This document shows positions 37,078 through 64,000 of a stretch of DNA of 64,000 nucleotides, one piece after another (positions within the stretch are counted from its first letter, which is position 1; each line of letters starts with the position of its first letter). Made by a program: the position numbers and the translations under genes. The notes below the pieces were generated by a model that did not search any database, was not told the origin of the DNA, and saw only the letters and a list, made by a program, of their open reading frames with translations. Source of the stretch: a virus; IMG/VR virus record IMGVR_UViG_3300050196_000225, positions 1 through 64,000 of that record. One strand, 5' to 3'.

Positions 37078-37253
37078 GGTGTGGGTTCCTTTCGGTTGTC
37101 GATGGACAGGTGCTCGGTGGTTTTCAGCCACCTGCGCACGGTTGAAGCGCTTTTTCCAGCGGATCTGGCAATCTCAGCGACGGACTGCCCAGAGTTGAAG
37201 CAGTTCCTGGCCGCCAAGAGAGCGCAAACTCGTTTGAAGCTCAGCGACGCCAT
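37074..37253 (-). CDS. small HTH protein (59 aa)
   Basis: Hand-translated as MASLSFKRVCALLAARNCFNSGQSVAEIARSAGKSASTVRRWLKTTEHLSIDNRKEPTP. It has a classic HTH and an ATGA overlap with nadV. Confidence 0.5.
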   Translation of the reverse strand: MASLSFKRVCALLAARNCFNSGQSVAEIARSAGKSASTVRRWLKTTEHLSIDNRKEPTP

Positions 37254-37256
37254 AGC

Positions 37257-40767: not shown

Positions 40768-41405
40768 TCGCCCAGGGAGCCACGGGGCGTCACCAGGGCT
40801 TCTTGCTTGTCGGCGCGGGCTTGAGCTTGCGCGTCCGAGAAGCTGCCTTCAGCGTAGCGCGCCTTGTTTTTGGCGTTGCCCAGGTAGAGCTTTTCGATGT
40901 TGGCTTCGAGCGTGGTCTGACGCTCAATGTCCAAAAGACGGCGCACGCCTTCCAGATGCAGTTCCAGCTTGGTCAGCTGACCGACCAGAGCCTCGCGGTC
41001 CAGAGCCTTGTTGTAGACCACGAACTTCTTGACAGTGTCCAGCACGTCGCAAGCTGCGATCTGCGCTACGCTGGCTTCTTCGCCAGCGTAGTCAAAGTGA
41101 GGCACGCTGCCAACCAGAATCACGCCGGTCGTTTCGCCACGATCGATGCCAACGCGCTGGCGCAGACCTTCCAGGTAGAACTCCAGGTCGCCCAACTCCT
41201 CGATCACGTTGACGAGGTCGATGTCCTGATATTTCAGGGCCGACTCAACGAAGGCCGCCAACAGCTCGCCAGCCTCGCCAGCAATACCTGTTGCCATGTG
41301 CCAGGCGTCGGCCTTCTCGGGCGTCAAGCTGGCCAGGATGTCTGCGCCAGGCTTGACAAGCGCCTTGACCATCAGCTCATAGTTGATTTCGGATGCGCGG
41401 CTCAT
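40758..41405 (-). CDS. MazG-like nucleotide pyrophosphohydrolase
   Basis: 215 aa. IAGEAGELL...IEELGDLEFYLEG is a MazG-type EExxE/ExxD helix pair. Confidence 0.6.
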   Translation of the reverse strand: MSRASEINYELMVKALVKPGADILASLTPEKADAWHMATGIAGEAGELLAAFVESALKYQDIDLVNVIEELGDLEFYLEGLRQRVGIDRGETTGVILVGSVPHFDYAGEEASVAQIAACDVLDTVKKFVVYNKALDREALVGQLTKLELHLEGVRRLLDIERQTTLEANIEKLYLGNAKNKARYAEGSFSDAQAQARADKQEALVTPRGSLGECK

Positions 41406-41753: not shown

Positions 41754-42683
41754 TTACTTTTTGAAGGACAGTTCGAGGAGCTTGCGGTGCTGAATCCAGC
41801 CGACAAGGTTGCCGTGCAGACCAGGCTTGTTCCAGTCCTCGATCACGTCAAAGTCGCCACTGTCATTGCCGATGTGATAGTTGACGATGGTGTCGGGCGT
41901 CGCTTGATGCTCGAATGGCGAGGCATGGATGGGGCGCGAGCCGGCCAGACGGTCGCACAGGTCCAGCTCCTCTTGCAAGGTGGCCTTGTTGCCATCGTGC
42001 TTGAGGTAGCTCACGCGGCAGCAGCGGGCGGCCGAAATTTTGCGCAACAGGTCGTTGCGCATTTCGTCAGTCCAAATGCACAACCCGTCAGGTCCACCCC
42101 GCAGGTGAACTTGAACGGCGGCGCGGTCCTCGTCGGTGACGTAGGGCAGGTGCCACTGGTCTGGCTCCAGAATGTCGGGGATTGACGCATCCATCGCCTG
42201 CTTCATCAGCACGGCCAGGTGACGAATCTCCGGCTGAGCGTCCTTGTGGTCACGCAGCCCAAAGAAGTTGTCCCACTCGGTCGCCGTGACGATCACGCTG
42301 ATCCACTGGAAGGGCTCCAGGATACGGTTGGCCACCTGCTTGTGAGCGCCGAGGGCAGCCATCTCTTCGGCGTTATTGGCGGCCTGCCAGGCTGCTCGGC
42401 ACCAGGCCGAGATTGCCAGGTCGCGCTCAAGGGCGTCCAGGCTCACGTCGGCCTGCATGCCGGGCTGGTTCTTGCCCCAATGGATCGGCATGGCGGGGTC
42501 GTTGCGCACCTGCTCGATCATCTTTGCCACCGGGATGGCGCGGGACGAACTGGCGTTGCGGCTGAACACCCGATGCGTCATGAACTCGGCATGGACGAAG
42601 CGGGGGTAGCGCAGCTGCATCGTGGCGATGCGCTTGCCAGTGTTCGAGCTGATCGAGTCAGCAATGATTTTGGCTTGAAACAT
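41754..42683 (-). CDS. thyX: flavin-dependent thymidylate synthase
   Basis: 309 aa with the ThyX signature MTHRVFSRNASSSRA (the RHRxxSxxxxSxR type). Confidence 0.8.
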   Translation of the reverse strand: MFQAKIIADSISSNTGKRIATMQLRYPRFVHAEFMTHRVFSRNASSSRAIPVAKMIEQVRNDPAMPIHWGKNQPGMQADVSLDALERDLAISAWCRAAWQAANNAEEMAALGAHKQVANRILEPFQWISVIVTATEWDNFFGLRDHKDAQPEIRHLAVLMKQAMDASIPDILEPDQWHLPYVTDEDRAAVQVHLRGGPDGLCIWTDEMRNDLLRKISAARCCRVSYLKHDGNKATLQEELDLCDRLAGSRPIHASPFEHQATPDTIVNYHIGNDSGDFDVIEDWNKPGLHGNLVGWIQHRKLLELSFKK

Positions 42684-48453: not shown

Positions 48454-49026
48454 TTAGGCAACCTTCATCGACTTGAACATTGCGATGGCGCCCTTGAACT
48501 CGGCCGTTGCGATGCCCGCTTTGATGGCAAAAAGCGCGTCCGCCAAGTGCTCGTTGTCGCCAGTCAGCAGCAGTTCGCCTTTGAACTTGCGCGTCAGCCA
48601 TTTGGCATAGGGGTGCGCTTCAACCGCCGCGTCGATCATTTCGCTCTTGGTGGCCGTGGCGAAACCTGTCCCAGCCTTCTTGACTTCAGTCGGCGTGACC
48701 TGGATCATCGGGATGGGGTGAGAGGCCAAAACACCAAGACACATCCCGTAGGATGCCATTGCACGCGCGGACTGCGAGCCCACTGGCACCTCAACAAAGG
48801 CGAAGGATGCGTCTTTGCAGGCGTCCTGGAAGCCCTCGTAGAGCAGCCGCGCCCTGCGCAAGTCGTCCGAGTTCTTGCGCACGGTCTTTTGCTTCTTGGC
48901 GTCGTCCTCAGACTCGACCAGAATCATGTCGTCCACTTTGAATTTCAGCGACTCGATGTCCAGTGTGGCCTTGACGAGGCCGAAATTGCGCAGGCTGGGA
49001 TCGCAGCCAACTACTTTGATATCCAT
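48454..49026 (-). CDS. RuvC-like Holliday junction resolvase
   Basis: 190 aa. VVGCDPSLRNFG (Asp 1), FAFVEVPVG (Glu) and NEHLADALFAI (C-terminal acidic motif). Confidence 0.6.
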   Translation of the reverse strand: MDIKVVGCDPSLRNFGLVKATLDIESLKFKVDDMILVESEDDAKKQKTVRKNSDDLRRARLLYEGFQDACKDASFAFVEVPVGSQSARAMASYGMCLGVLASHPIPMIQVTPTEVKKAGTGFATATKSEMIDAAVEAHPYAKWLTRKFKGELLLTGDNEHLADALFAIKAGIATAEFKGAIAMFKSMKVA

Positions 49027-49038
49027 GATGGTTCCTTT

Positions 49039-49656
49039 TTACCAACTGCCATAACCGAGCGCCTGATACTCGGGGCGAGCCAGGCGTTCGTCGTTCTCTT
49101 TCTTGCTCTGAACTTCAACATGCGCTGCGGCGCGTGCCGCAAGAATGGGTCTGATGCCTGAGCTGGCCATGAACCCGTCAAACTCGCCAAGAAGAGCGCT
49201 AGCCTCTTGCAGACCCATCTCCACGCTCTTGTAGTCGGACGCAGCTACAGGCTCAAAGACAAAGACAGGCTGGTCTTTCTTGCCGATGTAGCAGCTGACC
49301 AGGGCAAACTCTTCGCCGCCGATATGTGGCCGCTTGGCGTATTGACCTGTTTTCTTGACGATGGTCAGCGACTTTGGCTCCATCAGCTCAAACCGACCTC
49401 GGCTTGTCAGGATGCAGTGGTTGAGCGCCTCGACAAAATCGTCGCGCGTCCAGTCGCCTGGTGGAGGGAAAGAGGTCTTAAACTTGGCGTCAACCGACTT
49501 TTTCATGTTCATCGTCAAATAACCGCTCGCCAAAGCGGCAGCTTTTCGCTCTGCTGCCCTGTGCGACTTCCAGGTCGATGGCTCATCAGAATGAAAGCCT
49601 GGCTCCAGAACATCTTTCATGGTGGGGCCAGATTTTGTGTATTCAGAAATGGCCAT
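49039..49656 (-). CDS. hypothetical protein (ends ...GYGSW)
   Basis: About 205 aa from ATG 49656. ATG 49620 is an alternative start. Confidence 0.5.
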   Translation of the reverse strand: MAISEYTKSGPTMKDVLEPGFHSDEPSTWKSHRAAERKAAALASGYLTMNMKKSVDAKFKTSFPPPGDWTRDDFVEALNHCILTSRGRFELMEPKSLTIVKKTGQYAKRPHIGGEEFALVSCYIGKKDQPVFVFEPVAASDYKSVEMGLQEASALLGEFDGFMASSGIRPILAARAAAHVEVQSKKENDERLARPEYQALGYGSW

Positions 49657-51592
49657 GCTCTGTCGCTCCAGCCGCAGTTGCCAAACCGCCCGACTTGGTG
49701 ACGGTGATGACGTTATCAATCCAGTCAGAGAGTGAGTTGTGGCTGATCACCAGCACGGTGCCTCGCTCCCGAGCCTTGCGCTCCAGCACGCCCATCAGGC
49801 GCTCCAGACCACTCTCGTCAAGGGCATGGTCCACTTCGTCGGCGATGAAGATGTTGATGGGCTTGGTGGCGCGCGAGGCGACCATGTCCTGCAGGGCCAT
49901 TGCGGTGGCCAGGCGCACCTTGCGCTTCTCACCACCCGACAGACCAGCGAAGGATTCGGCGCCCTTGTCGTTCATTACGTCAATGTTGAACTTCTCGCGC
50001 AACTCGCCTTTGGCCGTCTTGCCCAAGGTTGACCACTCGGCGTGGATGTTGCCGTCGGCCAGGGCGCCCAGGTATTCCTGCGTGCGCTCATTCAGGTAAG
50101 GCGTGACGGTGTCCAGGACGTGCGCACGCACGCCGGCTGGGCCAAACACCTTGACGGCGTCTTCCAGCATCAAAACGGCCGCATTGGCTTCCTGGGTCTT
50201 GTCGGTCAGGTTGACCTTGTGCTCGATCGCCTTCTCGTGATCCTTGATCGCCTTGTCCACCATTGCCACATACGGGTTGGGCTCTGTCAGCTTGGTCTTG
50301 GCAGCGGCCTTGATCGACTCGATTTGCGCCTCGCACTGCTTGATGACCAAGCGGTGCCGATCAGCCTGGTTCAGCGCCTCTTGCGCGGTGCGCGCAAACG
50401 CAGCCACTTCGCTCACATCGGGCATCTGATCTTCGAACTCGGTGGCGGCTTCTTGCGCAGCTTTGAGCGTCGCATCCAGCGTCGCTTGCTTGGCAACCAG
50501 CGGGCGCAGAAGGTCTTTCTGCTTTTGGATGGCAGCTTGTCTGACGGCGCGGGCATCGTCCAGGTCGTGCTCGCAGTAGGTCTTGCCGCACTCGCCGCAG
50601 GGTTTACCCACCACGCTGTCAATGTCGGCCAGGGCCTGCGTTGCTTCCTTGAGCACCTTGGCGCCAGCTACCGTCGCTGACTTATTGGCGTCTGCATCGC
50701 GCTGCGCCACCATAGCAAGGCGCCGAAGCTCGGTCAGTTTTTTGACCTCATCATTGTGAGAGCCCAGGGTGACCTTGGCCCGGTCGACCACACCCTGCGC
50801 GCCAGCCGTGTCGATGCCGGCCAGGGTCGCCTCAACAATTTTTTGCTGCGAGGCGACCTTGCCCGCTTCGGCCAACTCGGTGCGGGCGCGGTCTTTGCGG
50901 CCATCCTCAAAGCCCTGCACAGTCTCCTTGAGCCGCAGCACCTCACCGGCCATGTGGCTTTCGGTGTTCTGAGCCGCGACCAGGGACGCCTTGAGACTTT
51001 CGAAGGTGGTCTTGGCGGTGTTCAAGCGCTTGCTGGCGATGCTGTAGGCAGCCGTGAGCACCTCGACGCCCGCAGCTTCCTCGATCAGGGTCTTGAGCAC
51101 CTTGTCGGTCATGCCTGGCAGATCGGGCATGCGCTCCTGGCCAGCGTAGACGGCGGCCATGAACACGTCCAGACTGCAGCCAATGATGCTCTCCACCACC
51201 TTCTGCGTCTCGTCGTCCGTGCCCTTGCTCATGTCAACAGCCAGCGCGCCTGGCGTCACCTTCGTGACATGCAGAGCGTTTTTGTGCGTGGCGTGCTTGC
51301 GGTGACGGGCGATCAGGTAGTGATCAGCGCCATCGATGATCGTGACGCGCACGTCGCAGTTCTTTTTGGCCGTCTTGTTGACCACCGCATCGCCTTTGAC
51401 GCCACGTGCCGTCACGCCATAGAGCGCCCAGCACAGCGCATCAACAATGGACGACTTGCCGGCGCCGTTGGATTCGGCAGATGGGTCGTCGCCATTGACG
51501 CCCTGGATCAGCAGCAGACCGCGCTCGTCAAGCTCGATCTTGGCCTTACCGATAGTCAAAAAGTTTTCAATTTCCAGTTCTTTGAAGTTCAT
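49643..51592 (-). CDS. SbcC/Rad50/gp46-type recombination ATPase
   Basis: 649 aa. Walker A NGAGKSS, long coiled coil with a central CGECGKTYC hook, signature LSGGEKRKV and Walker B IFIADEVDHALD. Confidence 0.85.
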   Translation of the reverse strand: MNFKELEIENFLTIGKAKIELDERGLLLIQGVNGDDPSAESNGAGKSSIVDALCWALYGVTARGVKGDAVVNKTAKKNCDVRVTIIDGADHYLIARHRKHATHKNALHVTKVTPGALAVDMSKGTDDETQKVVESIIGCSLDVFMAAVYAGQERMPDLPGMTDKVLKTLIEEAAGVEVLTAAYSIASKRLNTAKTTFESLKASLVAAQNTESHMAGEVLRLKETVQGFEDGRKDRARTELAEAGKVASQQKIVEATLAGIDTAGAQGVVDRAKVTLGSHNDEVKKLTELRRLAMVAQRDADANKSATVAGAKVLKEATQALADIDSVVGKPCGECGKTYCEHDLDDARAVRQAAIQKQKDLLRPLVAKQATLDATLKAAQEAATEFEDQMPDVSEVAAFARTAQEALNQADRHRLVIKQCEAQIESIKAAAKTKLTEPNPYVAMVDKAIKDHEKAIEHKVNLTDKTQEANAAVLMLEDAVKVFGPAGVRAHVLDTVTPYLNERTQEYLGALADGNIHAEWSTLGKTAKGELREKFNIDVMNDKGAESFAGLSGGEKRKVRLATAMALQDMVASRATKPINIFIADEVDHALDESGLERLMGVLERKARERGTVLVISHNSLSDWIDNVITVTKSGGLATAAGATEHGHF

Positions 51593-51849
51593 CAGCAGTC
51601 TCCATCCCAGCCTGTTTCAGGCATGGACAAGTCGTAGTAGAGGCCCAGCGTCTCGTAGGAGAAGTCGCCAAGCTCGGTGCCGTCGCCTGGGTATTGCGAA
51701 GGGTGGCCGTTCAGTCGCGGGAAGCCACCGTTCGTCGCATTGCGAATGAAAATGCAACGGTCTTTGACCCATACGCTCAGCCGCGTGCCGTCGCCATAGA
51801 AGTGGTCGGCCAGCTTGCGCGCGCCGGCTGGCAAATCACGCGCGCTCAT
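51592..51849 (-). CDS. hypothetical protein
   Basis: 85-aa ORF between the sbcD-like and sbcC-like genes. TGATG overlap. Confidence 0.5.
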   Translation of the reverse strand: MSARDLPAGARKLADHFYGDGTRLSVWVKDRCIFIRNATNGGFPRLNGHPSQYPGDGTELGDFSYETLGLYYDLSMPETGWDGDC

Positions 51850-51877
51850 CAGTCCTCTCCTTTGGAAATCTGCTTGC

Positions 51878-52948
51878 TCATACCGTCACCGCCTGTGCTT
51901 CGCTGAGAATGTCCTGGCACAAGGTGGCCAGGTCTTCGGGTCGGCGCATCGCCTGCGCCTTGATGTAGCTGCCCACACTGGCTTCGAGCGTTTCGCCCGA
52001 CTTGACCAGGGCAGTGCCTGCGCGCGGGGTGGCTGCGGCCGTCTTGTGGTGCAAGATCGTGACGCCCGCCGCACCGCAGTCGGTCAGGTAGGCGCGCAGA
52101 TCCTCGACGTCCTTCTGGTTGGACGAGCTAATCTTGGCGCGAGCGTAGTTCCCATCCACGATCAGCGGGATGTCCGCAGGGTCGGTGCTGGCGTCGATTT
52201 CAACGAAGGCCGGCGCGTGGCTCTTGAACCAGCGCACATTGCTGTCCGTGACAACCAGGAAGCCAGCCTTGCTGTTCACGTCGCTCCAGCTGTGGTGCGA
52301 CAGGGCGCCAACTGAGTAGACGCCGTTGCCGAAGTCCTTGTGGTGGTGGTAGTGGCCCGAGAAGACGCGCTTGAAGCCAATACTGCCCAGCCAGGCCGCA
52401 TCAAGCCCGTGATCTGGCAGGCCTGGAATCACCCCGTCAATCGGGGCGTGAATCATCAGGTCCACGTCGCCCGGCTTGGACTCCGAATCTCGGGCTGTCT
52501 CGATCTCCCGCTTCAACTGAGCGATGTCCTGAATCCACGGGATCATGATCACCCGATCGCCAGCGTCTCGCAGCCCTTGCATGGCTGTGTGGATGACCCT
52601 GCAGCCAATGTCTTCAAGCGAGGTCACCGCGCTGCCCAAACGCGTGGACTCTTTGCTTTCAAGATCATGGTTGCCTGGCAGCAGCACGATCTCAAAGCCA
52701 TCCATGATGAGCTTCTTGTAGAGGTCCTTCGTCGGGTTGAGGACCGATGGCGCGATCGAGCCACGCACATGGAACAGGTCGCCCGTGTGATAGATCGTCT
52801 TGCCGCCAGCTGCCCGGACCTCCTGTGCGCAACGCTCGGTTTCGTCCAGAATGGTCTGCAGGCGCGAGTTCACGCCGTTGGCGTTCACCGTGGCGAACGC
52901 AGACCACGCATGGTTGTGGGTGTCCGAAATGATGCCGTAAGGTTTCAT
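51878..52948 (-). CDS. SbcD/Mre11/gp47-type nuclease
   Basis: 356 aa from ATG 52948 (AAAGGAGAAGG RBS). Phosphoesterase motifs ISDTHNH, HTGDLFH, LPGNHD and SGHYHHH. Confidence 0.85.
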   Translation of the reverse strand: MKPYGIISDTHNHAWSAFATVNANGVNSRLQTILDETERCAQEVRAAGGKTIYHTGDLFHVRGSIAPSVLNPTKDLYKKLIMDGFEIVLLPGNHDLESKESTRLGSAVTSLEDIGCRVIHTAMQGLRDAGDRVIMIPWIQDIAQLKREIETARDSESKPGDVDLMIHAPIDGVIPGLPDHGLDAAWLGSIGFKRVFSGHYHHHKDFGNGVYSVGALSHHSWSDVNSKAGFLVVTDSNVRWFKSHAPAFVEIDASTDPADIPLIVDGNYARAKISSSNQKDVEDLRAYLTDCGAAGVTILHHKTAAATPRAGTALVKSGETLEASVGSYIKAQAMRRPEDLATLCQDILSEAQAVTV

Positions 52949-52961
52949 GCCTTCTCCTTTA

Positions 52962-52976
52962 TTCAGTCGTGACTTA
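52962..52976 (-). promoter_or_regulatory. Palindrome-family copy next to the RBS
   Basis: The minus strand reads TAAGTCAcgacTGAATAAAGGAGAAGGCATG. Confidence 0.4.
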
Positions 52977-53396
52977 TCACGAGACGTAAAATTTATGGCG
53001 CCCAATGGTGGACACCAACTTCATGCTGTGACGCCAGACCGGGCGAACAGTCTTGACGTGATAGAACTTGGCCCCGCCCACAAAGTAGTCGGGTTCGGAC
53101 TTGCGCGCGAGGGTGACCACAGCAACGCGCCAGGCCGTGTTCCAAGCCTTCTCGTCTTTGGGCTGGCCCTTGACCGTCAGCGCGTAACCGGCGCTCGTCT
53201 TGCGAACCATGCCAAAGCCGGGATTGACCCAGGAGAACTGTTTGGGCTTGGTGACCACTTCACAGACCTTGCGCGGATCACGCTCGGCCCTGTTCAGCGT
53301 CACTTGCGCCACAGCATGCTGGCCGACGATGGGCTCGCCGCGGGCCTCCATATAGACATTCATGGCCATGCACATGATGGCGGTGGTCATCAGCAT
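52977..53396 (-). CDS. SleB-type cell-wall hydrolase
   Basis: 139 aa. NVYMEARGEPIVGQHAVAQVTLNRA...KPKQFSW matches the Hydrolase_2 (SleB) core. Confidence 0.6.
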   Translation of the reverse strand: MLMTTAIMCMAMNVYMEARGEPIVGQHAVAQVTLNRAERDPRKVCEVVTKPKQFSWVNPGFGMVRKTSAGYALTVKGQPKDEKAWNTAWRVAVVTLARKSEPDYFVGGAKFYHVKTVRPVWRHSMKLVSTIGRHKFYVS

Positions 53397-53626
53397 GGGA
53401 TCACCACCCCGGCGCGCTTAATCTGACAGACCCAGTTTTGTGCCGAGCGGTTGTCGCTTGGCGTCAGGGGCACCGTCACGGTCTTGTTGGCCGCCACGTT
53501 TACCAGCTTCAGATGGCGGTTGCGAGACTTGATCTCCCACCCGTCATCCAGCAGTAGCTTGACCACCTTTAGGACTAGTTCACTCTTGATCGTCTTGGAC
53601 AGGTTCATGTGTTGCTTGTTGCTCAT
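53390..53626 (-). CDS. hypothetical protein (faint HicA-like resemblance)
   Basis: 78 aa. LLLDDGWEIKSRNRHLKLV...TVPLTPSD is only weakly HicA-like. Confidence 0.45.
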   Translation of the reverse strand: MSNKQHMNLSKTIKSELVLKVVKLLLDDGWEIKSRNRHLKLVNVAANKTVTVPLTPSDNRSAQNWVCQIKRAGVVIPC

Positions 53627-53655
53627 GTTGCGTTCAAGGTTAGATTGTAAGGTGC

Positions 53656-53672
53656 TAAGTCAGGAGTGACTA
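53656..53672 (-). promoter_or_regulatory. Palindrome-family element
   Basis: Plus strand taagtcaggagtgacta. The minus strand reads TAGTCActccTGACTTAgcacc. 30 nt upstream of ATG 53626. Confidence 0.5.
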
Positions 53673-54062
53673 CCGCAACTTCATCGCCTTCGCAATACTG
53701 CCGCTGCTGATCGATGTGTTCACGAGGAACTTGTCTCGCCCGAGTCTACGTTGCGGCGTAGTGCCTTCGGGGTGTGGCTCGCTTGGCGGGCTCCAAAAGT
53801 CCTGCAGCCTCGTAATATAGTAGTGGACGTTTTTGCCAACACGGTGGGCAACCCCTATTGCAGTAGCGCCTCTTCTTTCAGCTTCCCGCAGTGTTGCGAT
53901 GTCCAAACACCAGGCGTTCTTGCGAAAGAACAGCGATCTGGACTTTTCGCCCGAGCGCCACGCCAGGTAGAGGCACCTGCCGTCATCAAAGTGGTAGAAC
54001 ATGCCATATTTCTTGCCGTTGACGGAGTGAGGAACGCGCGTGATGCTCACCACGATCCCCAC
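53670..54062 (-). CDS. hypothetical protein
   Basis: 130-aa ORF. Confidence 0.55.
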   Translation of the reverse strand: MGIVVSITRVPHSVNGKKYGMFYHFDDGRCLYLAWRSGEKSRSLFFRKNAWCLDIATLREAERRGATAIGVAHRVGKNVHYYITRLQDFWSPPSEPHPEGTTPQRRLGRDKFLVNTSISSGSIAKAMKLR

Positions 54063-54376
54063 TCCCCGACATAAGCCAACATGCGGCGCGCGTCAACCTC
54101 GTCAATTACGGCGAGTTTGGCAACATTGCCCTTGATGACTTCTTCCATATTAACTTTTTCGACATTCCAGGACTTGAACTTCTTTTGAAGCGTCCTGCTG
54201 TTTGCAATGGCGTTGTCCAGAAAGTCATGGACATCTTTTTTGAACATGCCTGACTGGCCGGCATCTTTTCGAGATTGGCGCAGCCAGCAGCCGTAAGATG
54301 GGTCTGCGCCAAGAACAGACCTCACCACTTTCATTTTGTGCTGCCCGAACGGGAAGGTATCGTCTAATCCAATCAT
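54047..54376 (-). CDS. DUF3820-like protein (ends ...EWGSW)
   Basis: 109 aa. N-terminal FPFGQHKMKVVRSVLGADPSYGCWL resembles the FPFGKHKG...Y..W motif. Confidence 0.45.
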   Translation of the reverse strand: MIGLDDTFPFGQHKMKVVRSVLGADPSYGCWLRQSRKDAGQSGMFKKDVHDFLDNAIANSRTLQKKFKSWNVEKVNMEEVIKGNVAKLAVIDEVDARRMLAYVGEWGSW

Positions 54377-54723
54377 TCAATTCTCTTGAGGTAAATCACT
54401 GCCGTCTTCTTCGTCACGGTGGCAATGTGAGGCCCATAGATCTTGCACAGCAAGGCATAGAGCCTGGCGTGCGCGTCGGCTGGATCGTTCGCGATTTCAG
54501 TGTGGTTCTTGGCCCCGTGGATCAAACACATCTCGCCAAGCGGCCCCACCTCGACGCTTTGAACTTGCGCCCGACCAATAATCATTTTCGCTTTTTCATC
54601 CAGGAGATAAACCTCTTCACCAGGATTCAAGCATTTGGGATAGAAACCGCCAAGACGAAAGGTATTGAACTCGCTCTCGATGCCGACAACCGGCGGAATA
54701 AAGCCAATGACTCGCTTTTGCAT
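54373..54723 (-). CDS. possible ASCH/PUA-like domain protein
   Basis: 116 aa. The beta-rich pattern with GEEVYLLDEKAKMIIGRAQV is a weak call. Confidence 0.35.
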   Translation of the reverse strand: MQKRVIGFIPPVVGIESEFNTFRLGGFYPKCLNPGEEVYLLDEKAKMIIGRAQVQSVEVGPLGEMCLIHGAKNHTEIANDPADAHARLYALLCKIYGPHIATVTKKTAVIYLKRIE

Positions 54724-54766
54724 AATTTGCCCCTACACGTTAAAACTAAAGTGTAGGGGCAAATGC

Positions 54767-55789
54767 TTAGACTGGAGCAGTTGGCAGCAAGGCGACCAGT
54801 TGGTCGTAGGCTTTTTCCTGGGTGAGTTTTTCAGCCAGGGCTTTGACGAAATACTGCTTGCCGTCAGTCCACTTCACGCGCGGCTTGGAATACTCAATCA
54901 ACTTGTTGTCGATCAGGTATTGGAGCAAGCTGGTGACCGTATCAAACAGTGCCGCGCCATTCTCGTCAAACGACATGCGCAGGCTTGTTTCCTGGAACGG
55001 CTTGGTGAACTTGGACTTGGTGCATTGGATGGAGATGTTTTGGCCGACAAACTCTTTCTCGCCATCCACCAGGTCCATGATCTTCTGACGGCCCAGGGCC
55101 AGACGGGCAGAAGCGTAGAACTCCATTGCCTTGCCGCCTGGCGTTGTGCGCGGGTCACCATAGACCACACCGGGCTTCAGGCGCATCTGGTTGAGGTAGA
55201 GGAACGTGGCGTTCGACTCCTCGCAGTAGTGCGCCATCGACTTGAGCGTGGTGCTGGTCACGCGAGCCAGGGCCGTGGTGTCGTTCATGGACAGCTCATC
55301 CAGCTCCTTGTCAGCCACCGACTTTGGCAAGGCCGCCGCGATCGAGTCGAACACGAACAGGATGGGCGCGTCTTCCGAGATCACCTTGGAGGCACGCACG
55401 GCGCGCGCCGCTTTGGCCGCGATCATGTTGCCCTCTTCCCAGGTCTTCGGCTTGGCGTAGATCCAGTAAGGGCGATCCGTGCGCAGGCCAAAGCCTTCGG
55501 CCAGGTGGACGTCAAAGCTGCGCTCCCAGTCCATGAAGCCGGCCACGCCACCCATGCGCTGCGCCTTGACCATCCAGGCGGTGGCCAGGGCCGTCTTACC
55601 TGTGGACGACTCACCGAACATCTCCACCATGCGCCCAAAGGGCAGGCCGCCGTCGTAGCGGCCGGACATGATCTTGTTGAGAGGCGGGTAGCCGGTGTCA
55701 ATGAACTGCGTGACGGCCTGGGCGCCGTGGTTGTCACCGATCGCCTTGAGCAAGGTGTCGGCCAAATCTGCTGCTGATGCCATGATCAA
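54767..55789 (-). CDS. RecA/UvsX-family recombinase
   Basis: 340 aa. Walker A FGESSTGKTALA, Walker B LFVFDSIAA and the LNQMR loop. Confidence 0.8.
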   Translation of the reverse strand: MIMASAADLADTLLKAIGDNHGAQAVTQFIDTGYPPLNKIMSGRYDGGLPFGRMVEMFGESSTGKTALATAWMVKAQRMGGVAGFMDWERSFDVHLAEGFGLRTDRPYWIYAKPKTWEEGNMIAAKAARAVRASKVISEDAPILFVFDSIAAALPKSVADKELDELSMNDTTALARVTSTTLKSMAHYCEESNATFLYLNQMRLKPGVVYGDPRTTPGGKAMEFYASARLALGRQKIMDLVDGEKEFVGQNISIQCTKSKFTKPFQETSLRMSFDENGAALFDTVTSLLQYLIDNKLIEYSKPRVKWTDGKQYFVKALAEKLTQEKAYDQLVALLPTAPV

Positions 55790-55995
55790 CTGCCTTTCTT
55801 GATTTCAGTGAGTTGGACTTCAACTACCTCGTATTCGTCAGGCTTGTGAAGCGTCTTGCGACGCCCGTCTGCCTTGCCAAAAGAGGTGAAGAGGTGCGGT
55901 GCGCCGCGCTGCGTTCCCGCTGGCGAGTTGGGGCGCTGCGATTCGATGTCTCGGACGAAAAAGTAAGATGCGTCAGTGGTGACTGATCCACTCAT
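55786..55995 (-). CDS. hypothetical small protein (69 aa)
   Basis: From ATG 55995 (ATGA overlap with the FEN stop). ATGA overlap with the recA-like start. Confidence 0.45.
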   Translation of the reverse strand: MSGSVTTDASYFFVRDIESQRPNSPAGTQRGAPHLFTSFGKADGRRKTLHKPDEYEVVEVQLTEIKKGS

Positions 55996-56918
55996 GCGGC
56001 CTCCTTGAAGCGGTTGGCGAAGCTCTCGACGTTGCGCAAGATGGACACAAAGCCAAGCTCGGCGCACAGGTCGGCAAACGCCTCTGGGTCGTGCCGACCG
56101 GCGTCGATGCGCACATCGGTCTTTGCGGGCGCGGCCACTTTGAGCAGCTGCATCAGGCGCAAGTTGCGCCCAAACACTGCCCGACCTTCGGCGCTGCACA
56201 AGCGCAGATGTGCTTTCTTGGCTGGCTTGAAGTCGTCGCTATCGCAGCGCTGCCAGAACTTGCGCACGCTGCCGAACTCGGCGATGAACTCTGGTGCGCC
56301 TTTTTCGCCAATGCCGCCCACACCAGGAATGCAGTCGGAGCTGTCGCCCTGCAGTGCCTTACCTTCGAGGTAGGCGTAGGGCGTTGGAAAGCCTGTCGCG
56401 TCCATCAGCGTGTCGATGGTCACCACCCGCGAGTCATCCCGAGGGTCGTGCCAACTCACACCTGGCCGCACAAGCTGAATCCAGTCGCGATCGCCCGTCA
56501 TCAGCTTGATCAGGTGCTTTGGCGTTGCGAGCCCAGCGTTTTGCTGCGTGAGCTTTTCGACAAAGTAGCCAGCCATGTCGTCAGCCTCATGGTGCATGGC
56601 AGTGAGCTGACGCACGCCCAGGGTGTTCAAGGCCCGAGCAATGAGAGGACGTTGAGCCACATAGGCCTCTTTGTCCTTGACCTTCTTGGGGTCGTTGTCG
56701 CGGTTGGATTTGTAGTCGGGGTGCAGGTCATAGCGCCACTGCGCTTTGCCGTCCCACAACACCATGAGACGCCAGTCAGGATTGTCCTGACGCAGCTGAC
56801 GCATGGTTTTGATGAAGCCGAAAATTGCCTGGGTCTGCATGCCGCCCGAGGTCAGCTTCGTGGCGTGGTGCGCGGCGTGCCCAATGGCATTGCCGTCCAC
56901 GATCAGTGTCTTGCTCAT
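55992..56918 (-). CDS. 5'-3' exonuclease / flap endonuclease
   Basis: 308 aa. LIVDGNAIGH, TGDRDWIQL and the H3TH motif IPGVGGIGEKGA. Confidence 0.9.
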   Translation of the reverse strand: MSKTLIVDGNAIGHAAHHATKLTSGGMQTQAIFGFIKTMRQLRQDNPDWRLMVLWDGKAQWRYDLHPDYKSNRDNDPKKVKDKEAYVAQRPLIARALNTLGVRQLTAMHHEADDMAGYFVEKLTQQNAGLATPKHLIKLMTGDRDWIQLVRPGVSWHDPRDDSRVVTIDTLMDATGFPTPYAYLEGKALQGDSSDCIPGVGGIGEKGAPEFIAEFGSVRKFWQRCDSDDFKPAKKAHLRLCSAEGRAVFGRNLRLMQLLKVAAPAKTDVRIDAGRHDPEAFADLCAELGFVSILRNVESFANRFKEAA

Positions 56919-56935
56919 GATGAGTCTCCATGATT

Positions 56936-56957
56936 GAGAAACCCCCTTTCGGGGGCC
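56936..56957 (-). terminator. Rho-independent terminator after the SSB gene
   Basis: The minus strand reads GGCCCCC-gaaa-GGGGG-TTTCT. Confidence 0.6.
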
Positions 56958-56978
56958 TCTCGTTTCAGTTCAACCCGA

Positions 56979-57800
56979 TCAGTCGGTGCCAGTGCCCAGA
57001 TCACCCAGCAGGTCGTCCAGCTCGTCATCGAGGGCAACGTCAGCAGCAACCGGCTTGGCCGCGGCCGCAGCACGGCGTGCGTGGGCCAGGTCGTCGTCGG
57101 CAGCGGCGTCAGCCGGCGTCTTGGGGCGGTCAGCGGAGGGCGGAGGAGGCAGCAGACCAGCAACGGAGTTGATGGCCGTCAGCGCCCGGCGCTGCTGCTC
57201 TTCGCTTTCCTGCTTGACGTAGTCGTCCAGGTTGTTGATCTTGGCCATCACGCCCTTGGGCAGAACGTGCTTCTTGGCGCTGATCTGGACCGAATACTTC
57301 GTGCCCAGGCCCTTGCCGTCGCGCTTGATCACCAGGATCATGGGCTCGACCGGATCGAACATCGCAGCGCCCCAGTCTTCCATCAGGTCCACAATTTGCG
57401 TGTAGACCGACTTGCGCACTTCGAGGATCTGCGGGGTGTCCGCTTCGGACGTGTCCAGGGCCAGAACGTTGAACAAGTAGGACTGACCAGAGGCAGCTTC
57501 CTTGAGCAAGGCCTTCGTCTCGTCATCGACCGAATGCATGGCTTTGGCCAGGCCGTCGCACACGGGGCACTGGTGGCCATAGGTCTTGTCCAGGCAGGGG
57601 TAGACAGCCTGAATTTCGCCAGCGGCATTCTTGATGTAGTGCTGACCGAAGTCGTGCCACCAGATGTGCTCGCTGCCCTTGGCCCAACCGGGCAGAAGAA
57701 CGTAGCGACTGTCGCCAGGAGCAGGCTTGAGCGTCTTGGCCTTTTGCTTCAGGGCGCTCTTCTTGTCCTTCATCGCTTGCATGAGTTTGTTGATGTCCAT
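56979..57800 (-). CDS. gp32-like ssDNA-binding protein
   Basis: 273 aa. Cys/His cluster YGHQCPVCDG, an Ala-rich linker and the acidic tail DDELDDLLGDLGTGTD. It sits in the recombination/replication block. Confidence 0.6.
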   Translation of the reverse strand: MDINKLMQAMKDKKSALKQKAKTLKPAPGDSRYVLLPGWAKGSEHIWWHDFGQHYIKNAAGEIQAVYPCLDKTYGHQCPVCDGLAKAMHSVDDETKALLKEAASGQSYLFNVLALDTSEADTPQILEVRKSVYTQIVDLMEDWGAAMFDPVEPMILVIKRDGKGLGTKYSVQISAKKHVLPKGVMAKINNLDDYVKQESEEQQRRALTAINSVAGLLPPPPSADRPKTPADAAADDDLAHARRAAAAAKPVAADVALDDELDDLLGDLGTGTD

Positions 57801-57880
57801 TTGTTTCTTTCGTTTGGTTGAGGTTTGAGCCTTTGGACTTGGCCGGGACTATCCCGGTTACATCGGTTCAGCTTCTTCAG

Positions 57881-57919
57881 TATAGTCATCCGTGACTTAG
57901 TAAAATGGTCACGGATGAG
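57881..57919 (-). promoter_or_regulatory. Palindrome+TATACT element within an 11-bp-stem hairpin
   Basis: tatagtcatccgtgactta, plus tcatccgtgac-N11-gtcacggatga. The minus strand reads CTAAGTCAcggaTGACTATACTgaag. Confidence 0.55.
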
Positions 57920-57924
57920 GCTAT

Positions 57925-58860
57925 TTATGCGGCGCGGCGGGCTCCAGACAGCGCAGCGCGGCCAGCGGCAGCGGCAGCGGCGGCGGTAGAGTCGCGCTCG
58001 TTCTGGGCGGCCATGACGCGGGCCTGGCCCTTATATTCGTCGCGGCGATCGGCGCCAAGCTGGATGATCATGTCCCGGCGATCCTTCAGGGATTCGACCA
58101 TGCTCTTGTTGATGGCGGCAATGGACTCGGACTCGATGACCAAGTTCTTGGCGCGCAGCCAGCGGGAGTCGACCTTGACGGCGTTTTCCACCATCTTCTC
58201 GGTGACCTTCTCGCCACTGGCGACCAGGCCCTTGCGGTGCTCGTCATAGAGCTTGGCTTCGATGACTTCAAACTTGGACTTCATGCGCGAGGCTTGCGCT
58301 TCGGCTTGAGCGGCCTGTGCGCCATAGAAGGCGCGCAAGCCGTTTTGCTCGATCATGCAAGAGTCCAGCGTGGCTTCGCTGACTTTGGTGTCGCGCATGA
58401 ACTGGTTCACGTCCACATAGTGCTGGAGCGTGCCGATGCTCGACGACGCCACGGGCGGGGGCTCATAGACGGCCGTGCTGACGCTGACGCGCCTGGGCTT
58501 TGGCTCGGGCTCAGGTTCAGGCTGCGACTCTTCCCACGGCGCAGCGGCTACAGGCTCGGGCGCAGTTTCTTCCGGCTCGGCCGCTGCTTCGGCTTCAAGC
58601 TCGGCCAGATCTGCCTCAAGCTGATCTGTCGTGTCGGCTTCAGCGACAGCAACAGGCTGCGGCACTGACAGTTCATCAGGAACCGCCGCGACAGGCTCAG
58701 GTTCAGGTTCAGGCTCAGGTTCCATTGCCGCAATTTGCGCAGCCGAAGGCTGTGACGCAGGCTCATCTTGAGCAACTTGAGCCGTAAGGCCAGCTGTTTG
58801 AGCCTCAAGCTCAGCCATGAGCAGTTCAATTTCTTCATTGGACGTGTCGATGTCAGTCAT
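57925..58860 (-). CDS. acidic (EP)n-repeat protein with a UvsY-like C-terminal half (tentative)
   Basis: 311 aa. The N-terminal half is acidic with PEPEPEPEP blocks. The C-terminal roughly 150 aa show a spacing pattern similar to T4 UvsY, and the gene lies between the SSB and DnaE genes. Confidence 0.4.
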   Translation of the reverse strand: MTDIDTSNEEIELLMAELEAQTAGLTAQVAQDEPASQPSAAQIAAMEPEPEPEPEPVAAVPDELSVPQPVAVAEADTTDQLEADLAELEAEAAAEPEETAPEPVAAAPWEESQPEPEPEPKPRRVSVSTAVYEPPPVASSSIGTLQHYVDVNQFMRDTKVSEATLDSCMIEQNGLRAFYGAQAAQAEAQASRMKSKFEVIEAKLYDEHRKGLVASGEKVTEKMVENAVKVDSRWLRAKNLVIESESIAAINKSMVESLKDRRDMIIQLGADRRDEYKGQARVMAAQNERDSTAAAAAAAGRAALSGARRAA

Positions 58861-58937: not shown

Positions 58938-61900
58938 CTATTCGAGGATTTCGGCGACCTTCTCGAAAACGGCGTCGAGGATGAGTTGCTTGTCAGGGTC
59001 GAAGTGGACCTGTTGCGCATTGATGCCGCAGACGATGGTGGCGTCCAGCTTCGGGTCAAAGATCGCTTTGCCGGCCAACTCGGCTGTGCCGCCCTTGATG
59101 CCTGGCACGAAATACTTGATGGCGGCCGAGCCCAGGGCCACGACCACCGAGGGCTTGATCAGCTCCAGCTCGCGCTCGATGAACTTGCGGCAGCCATTGA
59201 GTTGACCGTTGGTCAAGAACTTGTCGTTTTTCCTGGCCTTGACCAAGGTCGTGAAATACCCTTCAGACGCAGCCAGGTTTGCTGTCTTGATCGCTGACTT
59301 CACGCAATTCGCGGCGTCGCCCTCAAGCAGCTTGTCGGCCTTTTCTTCCTGCCAGGTCGGGCAGTCCGACACCACCATGAACTTCACGTTGGTCTTGAGA
59401 CGAATCGTCGGGTGGGCCTGGCCAGCCAGGTCGCAGGCGTCGCACTTCTTGTATTCCTGAACCAGCGAGATCACTTTGGCGCGCAAGAACTTGTCACCCA
59501 CGTCGGTTTGGCGATCAGCCTTCACGGCGTCAATGATCAGGCCGGGCATCAGCTCCATCTGCGCCTTGCGACGGTCAGGGTGGCGCGGGGGCTTGGAGCC
59601 AGGGATCAGGTGCGCCAGGGCACCAACCTCTTCCAGGTTCTCGACGCACTTGATGCTGACCTTGGAGCCCATTTCGGCCGCGGCGGTCTTGAACTCTTCA
59701 GCCGTATCGAAGCGGCCCTTGACTGGCGCCGTGTCGTCAGACGCCCAGACCTCCTCAGTGGTGCCGTCGCGCTTCTTCTTGATGCGAGCGACCTTCCAGC
59801 CTCGGTTCTTGTTGCGCAGCGCCACAATGCGCTCCGCTGTGTTTTCGGAGATGCCCTTGACGGCCGAGAATGGCGCCAGGATGTGCTCGTCGTCAGGAAT
59901 GGTGAACTTGCTACCAGACAGGTTGATGTCGGGCGGCAGCACTTCGATGCCACACTCGCGCGCATCGTTGACCAGGCCGGGCAGCTTGTCCTCCTTCACA
60001 ATCGACATGCAGGCGGCGAAATACTCGGCTGGGTAGTTCACGCGCACCCACATGGTCCACAGCGAGATCACGGAATACTCGACAGCGTGGCTGCGATTGA
60101 AGCCGTAGCCAGCGAAGGCCTCGATCTTGTCGAACAGGTTGCCAGCGCGGCCGGCGTTCATGCTCGACTTAGTTTCGCACCCGTCGATCCACTTCTGACG
60201 CATTTCGGCCATCTTGTCCTTGTCCTTCTTGCCCATCGCCTTGCGCAAGTGGTCAGCTTGTGCGCGCGTGAAGCCCGCGACGTCAACGGCCAGCTGCATC
60301 ACCTGTTCCTGGTAGACGATGACCCCATACGTGTCCTTGAGCGCGTCCTCCATGTTCGGGTGATCGTAGGTGATCGCCTTGAGCCCTTGCTTGATGGCCA
60401 CGAAGTCGTCCATCAGGCCCGAGTCCATCGGCCCTGGACGGTAAAGGGCGGTGGCTGCCGTGATGTCTTCGAACGTGAGCTGGCCGCCCTTGGCCAGGTT
60501 GCGCAGCAGGTTTTTCATGCCGCTGGATTCGAACTGGAAGACGCCCGTGGTGTCGCCCCGCCCGAAAGCATCCATGACGCGCGGGTCGTCAATCTTCAAC
60601 TTCAGGTAGTCGATGGACTTGCCGTGACGCTCCTTGATGTAGGTCTTGGCAATTTCCAGCACATCAAGGGTTGACAGCCCAAGCAAGTCCATCTTGATCA
60701 GGCCCCAATCCTCGACCACCTGCTTGTCCCAGTTCACCACGGGCGAGCCAGCGCGAGTTTCCACCACGGCGCGCTCAGTCAGCGGCTCGCCGGCCACGAT
60801 CACACCGGCCGCGTGCTGGCTGAACGAGCGCATGGCACCTTCGAGCTTGAGCGCGTGACCCCAGACCTCCTGATTGTCGTCGCGGAATTGCTCCAGCTCG
60901 GGCACAACCTTCGCGGCCTCTGCCAGGGTGAAAGACTGCCCGTGCTCTTTTGGCACCAGCTTGGTTGCGACCAGATCGATGCCAGTCATGCCATAGACGC
61001 GCCCCGTGTCGCGCAGCGCAGAGGCGCTGGCCAGGGTCGAGTAGTTGGAGATGCCCGCAACGTGGTCGGTGCCGTATTTCGCAGCCAGGTATTCCACGAC
61101 CAGGTGGCGCTTGCTCGACATGAAGTCCAAGTCAGCGTCGGGCAAGTCTTGGCGCTCGGGATTGATGAAGCGCTCGAACAGGAGGTTAAAGCGGATCGGG
61201 TCCACATCGGTGATGCCCAGCAGGTAAGCGACCAGACTGCCGCCGACCGAGCCGCGACCAGGGCCGACGATGATGTCGTTTTGCTTGGCCCACATGACCA
61301 AGTCCTCAACCAGGAGGAAGTAGCCTGAAAAACCCATGCTCTTGAGCACGCCAAGCTCATAGCTGAGCCGTTCCTTGTAGGTCGGGATCAGCGCTGGCGG
61401 CGGCAGGTAGCCCAGCACAGGCTGAGTGAACCGGCGCTTCCAGCCCTCGATGCACTTTCTGCCCAGCTCCATAAACTCGTTGGGCGCCATCTGAGGCAGA
61501 CACACGGGCTTCTTCTCGAAGGCGTAGTTGCACATGTCGGCCAGCACTTCGGTGTTCGCCAGACCTTTGAGCCATGCCGTTTTGTTGGCCGATGCGGGCG
61601 CCCACTTGATCTGTCTGGCCAGCGCCTGCTTGACGCGAGCCACAAGAGTGGCTGGATCGCCGAACACAAAGTCCTTGACGAACTGCTTGGAGCGGTAGCC
61701 AACGGACATTTGCGTGTTGGTCGTGATGGCGCCCAGCACGTCCAGGGTGGCTGCGTCATCACCCTTGTAGCAGGCGGGGTAGGTCACCAGTGTTTCGGCG
61801 CCCAGCAGCTTGGCTGAGTCGCACGCCAGGGCGTTGAGCGTGTCGAACAGCGGTGTGTTGACAGGCACCAGCTCCACGAAGACTTTGTCCTTGCCGAAGG

Positions 61901-62390
61901 TGTCGATCAAAGAGCCCAGGATCGAATGAGCATTCTCCACATGAAACAGACCAAACAGGTCACCCGTGGAGATGGCCACACCTTCGAGGGCCAGCACGTC
62001 AGCCAGCCCGCAACGGGCGTGGTAGTAGAAGTATTCCGGCGATGTGGCTTTGGACAGCAGCTTGAGCAGGCCTTTGACGCCGCGCTCGTCGGTGGCGTAG
62101 ACCTTGAGAACGTAGGATGGGTTGGGCTTTTCCTCCTCGCCAGAGGCTTTGGACGGCTTGCGATAGGTGGGGTCTTCAGCTACACGCACGCGGCAGCCAA
62201 TGATGGGTTTGATGCCAGCCTTTTTGGCTTTGTTGCTGAACTCCACCATTGCGTGCAAGCTCATGGTGTCCACCAGGGCCACTGACTCGTAGTTCAGTTC
62301 TTTGGCTTTGTCGATGATGTGCTGAATCTGCAGCATGGACTCGCCAATGCTGAAGTCGCTTCTCACGCTGAGCGCATGATTGAGGTTCAC
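58938..62390 (-). CDS. dnaE: DNA polymerase III alpha subunit (C-family replicase) with a C-terminal UDG-family-4-like domain
   Basis: 1150 aa. PHP N-terminus, GRGSVGGSLVAYLLGITDVDP, catalytic PDADLDF and an HhH region. The last 170 aa (58941-59450) carry CDACDL...FMVVSDCPTWQEE...CRKFIERELELIKPSVVVALGSAA. Confidence 0.9.
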   Translation of the reverse strand: MNLNHALSVRSDFSIGESMLQIQHIIDKAKELNYESVALVDTMSLHAMVEFSNKAKKAGIKPIIGCRVRVAEDPTYRKPSKASGEEEKPNPSYVLKVYATDERGVKGLLKLLSKATSPEYFYYHARCGLADVLALEGVAISTGDLFGLFHVENAHSILGSLIDTFGKDKVFVELVPVNTPLFDTLNALACDSAKLLGAETLVTYPACYKGDDAATLDVLGAITTNTQMSVGYRSKQFVKDFVFGDPATLVARVKQALARQIKWAPASANKTAWLKGLANTEVLADMCNYAFEKKPVCLPQMAPNEFMELGRKCIEGWKRRFTQPVLGYLPPPALIPTYKERLSYELGVLKSMGFSGYFLLVEDLVMWAKQNDIIVGPGRGSVGGSLVAYLLGITDVDPIRFNLLFERFINPERQDLPDADLDFMSSKRHLVVEYLAAKYGTDHVAGISNYSTLASASALRDTGRVYGMTGIDLVATKLVPKEHGQSFTLAEAAKVVPELEQFRDDNQEVWGHALKLEGAMRSFSQHAAGVIVAGEPLTERAVVETRAGSPVVNWDKQVVEDWGLIKMDLLGLSTLDVLEIAKTYIKERHGKSIDYLKLKIDDPRVMDAFGRGDTTGVFQFESSGMKNLLRNLAKGGQLTFEDITAATALYRPGPMDSGLMDDFVAIKQGLKAITYDHPNMEDALKDTYGVIVYQEQVMQLAVDVAGFTRAQADHLRKAMGKKDKDKMAEMRQKWIDGCETKSSMNAGRAGNLFDKIEAFAGYGFNRSHAVEYSVISLWTMWVRVNYPAEYFAACMSIVKEDKLPGLVNDARECGIEVLPPDINLSGSKFTIPDDEHILAPFSAVKGISENTAERIVALRNKNRGWKVARIKKKRDGTTEEVWASDDTAPVKGRFDTAEEFKTAAAEMGSKVSIKCVENLEEVGALAHLIPGSKPPRHPDRRKAQMELMPGLIIDAVKADRQTDVGDKFLRAKVISLVQEYKKCDACDLAGQAHPTIRLKTNVKFMVVSDCPTWQEEKADKLLEGDAANCVKSAIKTANLAASEGYFTTLVKARKNDKFLTNGQLNGCRKFIERELELIKPSVVVALGSAAIKYFVPGIKGGTAELAGKAIFDPKLDATIVCGINAQQVHFDPDKQLILDAVFEKVAEILE

Positions 62391-62428: not shown

Positions 62429-63085
62429 TTATGCAGCGGGCGCAGGAGTCACAACGATGCGCCCGTCGGTTTCCTGCGTGGCGCCAAATGTCGGCAGCAA
62501 AGCCACCACCATTGACACGTGTGAGGCGGCCGTGCTGTCAGTCCAGCCCAGCTCGGCGATCAGCGCCGCACGCAAAGAAGCGCGCGTGAAGCCGCCAGAG
62601 CACAGGGCTGACAGTGCGATACGCAACCACGCCGGCACGCTCTTGACGCCCGATGCGTCTTTCGTCTGCAGTGCCTTGCGAAGCTCAGCGGTTGCACCGC
62701 TTGAGATCAGCGTGATGGCCAAAGGCCTGATCTTGACAGGCAGCGTGGCCACCACCGACTCGTCCTGGGCCGACAGTTCGATCTTGACTTTGGTCAATGG
62801 CGTCTTGCGCTCAGTAGGCTCCAAAGTCACGGGCTTTTCAATGTTGCCAGGCGGCGCTTCTTTGGCCGCGCGCTCGTCCTCAGCCTTCAAGACGGCCTGG
62901 GCTTTGCGCTTGGCCACCTTGTGACGCGTGAGCAGGTCGGTGACGCAGATCACATCCTTGATGGCTGCCAGCGTTTCGACGGCCTTGTCAGCGCATGCAG
63001 CAAACGCCGGGCAGCGCTTGCAGATGTCCGAGTCGTGGCTGAAGACGCTGGCGGCGCCGAAGCAGCCTGGTGCATTAGTCGTCAC
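62429..63085 (-). CDS. hypothetical protein with an N-terminal Cys cluster
   Basis: 218 aa. CFGAASVFSHDSDICKRCPAFAAC at the N-terminus. Coupled to the sigma gene by an ATGA-type overlap. Confidence 0.55.
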   Translation of the reverse strand: MTTNAPGCFGAASVFSHDSDICKRCPAFAACADKAVETLAAIKDVICVTDLLTRHKVAKRKAQAVLKAEDERAAKEAPPGNIEKPVTLEPTERKTPLTKVKIELSAQDESVVATLPVKIRPLAITLISSGATAELRKALQTKDASGVKSVPAWLRIALSALCSGGFTRASLRAALIAELGWTDSTAASHVSMVVALLPTFGATQETDGRIVVTPAPAA

Positions 63086-63732
63086 GCCAAATTCCTCCCA
63101 AAGACCTCGATGACTTCGCGGCGCGCGTCCTGCAGGTCAAGCGGTGACACGCCAAGCGCCTTGCGCAGCACCGAGCACACGAAGTCCATGCCCAAAGGCG
63201 ATGGCTTGCGAAAGCGCGCGTCCGGGTCTTGCTCGCGTGCATAGTCGATGTGCGCATTGGCAGCTTCGAACTCGTTTTCGATGAACTGCGGCGGGTTGAC
63301 CGTCATAGAAATGACCGTCGTGGCCAGCGGTGACAGTTCGCTGAGCGCGTCCACGACCGACTGTCGGTGCGCGAGCACGTCTTCTTGTGTTGGCTGCACG
63401 CACGGGATCATTTCACTGACGTCCATTTCATCGTCAGACCATGAAGACATTTCTTCAACTGATCTGGACATGAACTCAATCGAGCGCTCGTGGCGCTCGG
63501 CCAGCTTGTTCACATGGTTGTAGGCCGAGCGCATGAAGTAGGTCGAAAACTTGCCTTGCTCATGGTCAAACAGGTCGTAGGACTTGACAAAGACGATGGT
63601 CAATTCACTGACCACGTCCTCAAACTCCATACCTGTGCCAATTGCGCGCAAGCGGCCGACGCACTTGGCCGCAACCATGCGAATCAACCCAATGTTGTCG
63701 GCGTAAAAACGCCCCAGGTTTGCGCGGTCCAT
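63082..63732 (-). CDS. phage-encoded sigma-70-family factor
   Basis: 216 aa from ATG 63732. Region-2-like NIGLIRMVAAKC...FEDVVSELTIVFVKSYDLFDHEQGKFSTYFMRSAYNHVNKL. Region-4-like LSELSPLATTVISM...VLRKALGVSPLDLQDARREV. Confidence 0.65.
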   Translation of the reverse strand: MDRANLGRFYADNIGLIRMVAAKCVGRLRAIGTGMEFEDVVSELTIVFVKSYDLFDHEQGKFSTYFMRSAYNHVNKLAERHERSIEFMSRSVEEMSSWSDDEMDVSEMIPCVQPTQEDVLAHRQSVVDALSELSPLATTVISMTVNPPQFIENEFEAANAHIDYAREQDPDARFRKPSPLGMDFVCSVLRKALGVSPLDLQDARREVIEVFGRNLA

Positions 63733-63748
63733 GATCGTGCCCTCTCTA

Positions 63749-64000
63749 TCAGGTCGGGAACACGCGGGTAGCCAGGCCGTCAACCACCTCTCGGTCAACC
63801 TTGGACAGCTTATTGATAAAGGACAGCGTCAAGCCCTGACGGAAGCTCATGCGCTTGATGCCGATTTTGCCGGCGCTGATCAAGGCGCGCGGGCTGATCA
63901 CGTCGCTGATCTTGGCCGCGTCGTAAGCCTGGCGCACCAGACCGGCGAACTCGACCATCTTGTCGGCGTCTTCCTTGACCATGCCCACCTTGTTTTGCAA
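63749..64000 (-). CDS. CobS-like AAA+ ATPase, C-terminal part (gene runs off the window end)
   Basis: DKMVEFAGLVRQAY...ISPRALISAGKIG...FRQGLTLSFINKLSKVDREVVDGLATRVF matches the CobS C-terminal pattern as I recall it. Confidence 0.5.
   Translation of the reverse strand: MQNKVGMVKEDADKMVEFAGLVRQAYDAAKISDVISPRALISAGKIGIKRMSFRQGLTLSFINKLSKVDREVVDGLATRVFPT

Follow-up and report, generated by a model that had tools for sequence, protein, structure and literature searches.

[quoted passage not shown]

The C-family replicase (DnaE) gene in this window, the 64,000-nucleotide stretch of viral DNA that was analyzed, ends in a region resembling a uracil-DNA glycosylase (UDG), raising the question of what a repair-enzyme fold does on a Pol III-type polymerase. 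The preliminary description had proposed that the last ~170 aa are family-4 UDG-like and that they stand in place of the usual OB/tau region. Both proposals were borne out, as profile and structural matches assign the C-terminal domain to the UDG superfamily fold (PF03167), and the canonical DnaE1 C-terminal OB fold and tau-binding C-terminal domain (CTD) are absent from this 1150-aa protein, in which a linker of ~45 residues follows the (HhH)2 domain and the UDG fold then extends to the last residue. The polymerase is laid out as follows:

58938-62390, minus strand: dnaE gene, 1150 aa, in the order PHP, Pol III palm/thumb, fingers, (HhH)2, UDG-like domain
61521-62369, minus strand: PHP domain (Pfam-type domain match)
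59991-61466, minus strand: polymerase catalytic core (palm, thumb, fingers)
59625-59951, minus strand: (HhH)2 domain, including a subclade-specific basic beta-hairpin (residues 865-884)
59493-59624, minus strand: linker (residues 923-966), not long enough to hold an OB fold, containing a conserved helix (938-947) and an L-M-P-G turn
58941-59492, minus strand: family-4 UDG-fold domain (residues ~967-1150), catalytically degenerate

The PHP-Pol3-(HhH)2 core of C-family DnaE was recovered with Pfam and matched the 2hpi and 2hnh structures in Foldseek, and its catalytic aspartates (D418/D420/D568) are invariant. Within the linker, Q944-M948 is conserved and resembles an internal beta-clamp motif; this segment is predicted to be helical and is offset by ~5 residues from the E. 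coli motif in the alignment, and its Gln is missing in a second DnaE-UDG lineage described below. The basic beta-hairpin inserted in the (HhH)2 domain (window 59739-59798) occurs only in a subclade that includes Acinetobacter proteins.

The positions at which active family-4 enzymes bind uracil, catalyze excision and hold their [4Fe-4S] cluster map to these features:

59412-59444, minus strand: C983, C986 and H993, part of a putative Cys3His site together with C1067
59343-59369, minus strand: altered motif A (S1008-E1016), with G40>S, E41>D, G42>C and G44>T, and E47 kept as E1015
59235-59258, minus strand: Y-x-T strand (1045-1052), with N80>T1048 and C84>A1052; K1051 and K1054 are conserved
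59190-59192, minus strand: C1067, counterpart of the Fe-S ligand C100
59010-59027, minus strand: altered motif B (1122-1127), with the catalytic H155>N1124

The family-4 pocket consists of E41, G42, E47, F54, N80 and H155, with N89 positioning water (PMC5387724). Compared with TthUDGa (1UI0), TmUDG (1L9G/1VK2), StoUDG (4ZBX) and UdgX, the phage domain shares the fold, the CxxC pair, K83, C100 and E47, whereas E41, G42, F54, N80, N89, H155 and the Fe-S ligand C84 are altered and the domain is fused to a polymerase. Alignment to family-4 enzymes gave the changes E41>D1009, G42>C1010, F54>L1022, N80>T1048, N89>D1056 and H155>N1124 relative to TthUDGa, with only E47 (E1015) surviving, and the motif A GE(A/G)PG of active enzymes is replaced by S-D-C-P-T at 1008-1012. 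The preliminary description was thus right that both catalytic motifs are changed and understated the extent, as F54, N80, N89 and C84 are lost too. Single changes of this kind are costly in TthUDGa: activity drops more than 3 orders of magnitude in H155S, more than 40-fold in N80 mutants and ~17-fold in F54A, and the E41D substitution is harmful as well (PMC5387724).

Across 95 diverse relatives, the N80 position is S/A/T/G (N in 0/95), the H155 position N/S/T (H in 1/95), the F54 position L/M/G/A/F/T and the G42 position (1010) C/A/G/S/T, and no relative retains more than 3 of the 7 pocket positions. Positions that contact the base would not be expected to drift so freely in a domain that excises bases or specifically recognizes uracil, and we infer from these substitutions that the domain is catalytically dead. 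Against this reading, the E47 position is E/D in 90 of the 95 and D1009 is kept in 87, and together with a conserved N/S/T-P at motif B these residues could be the remnant of an active site.

The four-Cys [4Fe-4S] site is likewise incomplete, with three cysteines retained and C84 replaced by A1052; only 3 of the 95 relatives retain C84. C983, C986, H993 and C1067 are all present in 42 relatives and all missing in 38, an all-or-none pattern in 80 of 95 sequences that are related rather than independent. These four residues probably form a rebuilt Cys3His metal site, binding Zn, in place of the four-Cys Fe-S site, and about half of the family, SSU5 included, appears to have dispensed with it.

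The preliminary description regarded attachment of such a domain to a Pol III alpha as unusual, which did not hold: the replacement of OB and CTD by a UDG domain is real here but already published. Timinskas et al. [quoted passage not shown] Aravind and Koonin are said to have mentioned a Yersinia plasmid Pol III fusion already in 2000. Full-length fusions were found in Rhizobium RHEph10-like phages, Nickievirus, Stenotrophomonas phages, and SSU5-type Salmonella, Klebsiella and Escherichia phages. The Nickievirus, RHEph10-like and Stenotrophomonas homologs are 40-43% identical over their full length with the same gene order, and the UDG domain of the Acinetobacter baumannii phage-plasmid DnaE is ~55% identical, again with the same gene order. 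The protein of Salmonella phage SSU5 aligns over its full length (34.5%) and falls with this one in a single 100%-supported clade in trees of both the polymerase core and the UDG domain, though the copy studied here retains the CxxC/His/Cys residues that SSU5 has lost. The UDG domain also matches 197 plasmid records, 154 of them from Acinetobacter, the weakest matches being stand-alone UdgX. Literature searches found no functional or biochemical study of a DnaE-UDG fusion.

Conservation data indicate that the domain is functional and under purifying selection, as judged from sequence comparison. In total, 80 related viral loci were fetched with patterns from the polymerase core, which avoids bias from selecting on the UDG region; 79 carry the domain, and the remaining one is cut by a contig end. 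On loci found in this way, pN/pS was 0.30 for the UDG domain, compared to 0.24 for the palm and 0.46-0.47 for PHP and HhH2 (18 close loci, with pS near saturation), and identity among close loci was 69% for the UDG domain versus 57% for PHP. The conserved positions are scaffold residues and the basic residues 1051 (K/R in 95/95 relatives), 1054 (89/95), 1092 (89/95) and 1099 (88/95). Overall, though, residues 980-1150 carry a net charge of just +1, which speaks against a DNA-binding role.

The genome around the polymerase bears on what the domain could do. It is a 112-kb SSU5/Nickie-type phage genome with its own DnaB and primase, a ParA gene and a Rep-like gene. The ParA-like and replication-initiator-like genes lie on the opposite strand (G000:C1:69250-71013, equivalent to L008:5250-7010) and suggest a phage-plasmid lifestyle. 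The genes most relevant here are:

57925-58860, minus strand: conserved downstream neighbor, UvsY-like by position only (homolog in 81 loci)
56979-57800, minus strand: gp32-like SSB with acidic tail, conserved neighbor (homolog in 69 loci)
33689-34279, minus strand: separate DnaQ-like 3'-5' exonuclease
41754-42683, minus strand: ThyX, dTMP synthesis
40758-41405, minus strand: MazG-like pyrophosphatase (PHROGs match)

Matches for ThyX, MazG and the separate DnaQ-like exonuclease agree with the preliminary description. Searches of the complete genome found no DnaN or delta' (clamp and clamp loader) homolog, no trimeric dUTPase and no ThyA-family (PF00303, thymidylate/hmU synthase) or dCMP-deaminase-family (PF00383) gene, with controls that worked, and no other UDG; these negatives are not absolute, since the MazG-like gene detected with PHROGs escaped the Pfam MazG search. 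The downstream order of UvsY-like-by-position gene, gp32-like SSB, FEN and RecA is conserved in relatives. A T4-like recombination block (SbcC/SbcD-like, RecA-like, FEN, gp32-like SSB) thus sits beside a C-family polymerase (window 48454-58860), and the SSB tail is acidic, amphipathic and conserved. Upstream of dnaE, a 218-aa protein (phrog_3616, CxxC) and a sigma-70-like gene (window 62429-63798) are present in most relatives (60 and 48 loci). The window also encodes an NAD salvage pair, NAMPT (NadV-like) and an NMNAT-NUDIX fusion (35674-38330). NAD salvage of the NAMPT/NMNAT type is used by phages against NAD-depleting defenses.

In E. coli alpha, the C-terminal OB/CTD region binds ssDNA, clamp and tau (PMC3799427). 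As this phage has no detectable clamp or loader, the most economical reading is that the UDG scaffold has taken over template handling. We therefore lean, with moderate confidence, toward a catalytically dead module that has inherited the role of the OB/CTD in keeping hold of template ssDNA and supporting processivity. A family-4 domain would have been captured long ago by the replicase and later converted into a non-catalytic polymerase part that uses its former DNA-binding face to hold the fork or the template ssDNA as it enters. The domain would substitute for the displaced OB/CTD and boost the processivity of a polymerase without its own clamp or clamp loader, with no base excision, and the Cys3His site would stabilize the fold in the half of the clade that has not dropped it. 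Precedents come from family A, as the inactive UDG of N4-like PolA is a proposed processivity module (PMC10201439; PMC3201878) and the fused UDG domain of phiLo has been seen structurally to contact template ssDNA (PMC13697223). The N4-like enzymes likewise carry a dead UDG domain on a phage replicase, in phages with unmodified DNA, but the domain is N-terminal on a family A polymerase there and C-terminal, replacing OB/CTD, on a family C polymerase here (PMC10201439).

The main rival is that the dead domain would serve chiefly as a protein-docking platform, replacing the tau-binding CTD and coupling the polymerase to DnaB, the gp32-like SSB or another neighbor; this is compatible with DNA binding and seems to us unlikely, if a serious contender. 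The domain sits where the tau-binding CTD sits in cellular alpha, the phage has DnaB and primase yet no clamp-loader homolog, the gp32-like and UvsY-like genes follow dnaE in most loci and also in the distant lineage, and a family-1 UDG binds the SSB tail (title of 3ufm). Gene adjacency by itself is weak evidence, however, and the conserved residues fall in loops that bound DNA in the ancestral enzyme (motif A, K83 strand, motif B), not on a new surface. Complex prediction with residues 935-1150 and the gp32-like SSB scored 0.02, which counts neither way.

We give distinctly less weight to a live glycosylase with a rewired, possibly broader pocket, having a MUG-like Asn in motif B and a family-5-like small residue at N80, that removes U or some other lesion before the fork arrives, in the manner of SP15/YerA41 PolA. 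D1009 and E1015 are conserved, N1124-P at motif B resembles the MUG motif, and the genome has no other UDG and a weak ATP-ligase match. The YerA41 PolA UDG, moreover, still excises dU despite non-canonical motifs (PMC13697223). However, the position of the MUG catalytic Asn and UNG Asp (1010) is C/A/G/S/T, the stacking Phe is L/M/G/A/T and motif B is N, S or T, variability unexpected for an active site, and every one of the single changes is damaging in TthUDGa. The active PolA-UDG fusions of the SPO1 and SP15/YerA41/phiLo types also come from T-modified genomes, usually alongside PolX and ligase (PMC13697223), whereas in this phage the catalytic residues, including the His, are gone and PF00303 and PF00383 genes were not found.

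Slightly less probable again is a non-catalytic sensor of uracil or a modified base that makes the polymerase stall or protects U against host UNG, the read-ahead role offered in the preliminary description. TthUDGa H155S affects k2 and barely Km (PMC5387724), so loss of the His alone can leave a binder, and the thymine-excluding E47 position stays acidic. This role is disfavored because the uracil-binding N80 and F54 are gone and have drifted freely and because the genome makes dTMP through ThyX, with no ThyA/hmU-synthase or dCMP-deaminase family gene found. Close relatives are also deposited as plasmids of ordinary hosts (Acinetobacter, Aeromonas, Klebsiella), where their persistence would fit ordinary T-DNA. 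A rewired enzyme or sensor of new specificity, built on the invariant Asp, the Asn-Pro motif B and the Cys3His site and acting on the template ahead of the replicase, is about as doubtful as the live glycosylase; if true, a Pol III-type enzyme would for the first time have been shown to carry a read-ahead lesion module. Least credible by far is a functionless relic kept for folding only. In its favor, half of the clade can do without the metal ligands and pocket residues, but the domain is never lost in 79 informative loci and is better conserved than PHP or HhH2, with conserved surface-type lysines.

A profile search revealed a second lineage of phage DnaE-UDG fusions, in which the family-4 pocket is nearly intact and four cysteines are present (L020:923-4459; L009:8001-11627; L011:8001-12764; L012:4201-9723; L016:10001-13627; L021:2628-5948). 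L020 keeps motif A, E47, F54, N80, the four cysteines and the motif-B His, with all six uracil-pocket residues, and its UDG domain may be active. P0262, P0275 and P0276 keep N80, His and four cysteines, and other members show stepwise loss of N80 or His. These proteins form their own supported clade (98), and their downstream gene order resembles that of the window. Trees were built on subsets of 43 and 52 rows, leaving out partial and near-duplicate sequences. A single origin of dead and near-intact fusions, grouped in a first tree with three outgroups, dissolved into a polytomy with 12 outgroups; an AU test on one clade for both gave p 0.28, so it is neither rejected nor shown, and the UDG-domain tree did not join the two clades. 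An active form as ancestor of the domain in this phage is therefore not established.

The dead and near-intact versions on C-family polymerases offer a natural comparison for the passage from repair enzyme to structural replisome part, as N4 and SPO1 do in family A. The UDG domain marks the replicase of a widespread phage and phage-plasmid family, including members borne by Acinetobacter, Klebsiella and Salmonella, and bears on how phage Pol III enzymes remain processive without their own clamp.

While dnaE is unbroken in this phage, many relatives have it split into two genes at about residue 743 (L001:5284-8570; L007:2373-6567; L066, L072, L092, L093), and about 30 clusters of 370-420 aa match split pieces. 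RefSeq labels the C-terminal halves 'uracil-DNA glycosylase family protein'. A NUMOD4/HNH ORF often lies between the halves, with none in L072. By eye, the new ends look like split-intein remnants with no obvious splicing residues, which suggests a two-chain polymerase. One Acinetobacter phage-plasmid dnaE is broken a second time, just after the GRGS motif, by what looks like a split intein, the halves flanking a free-standing ORF (L001:3041-6684), similar to the 'fractured gene' arrangement (PMC2677866).
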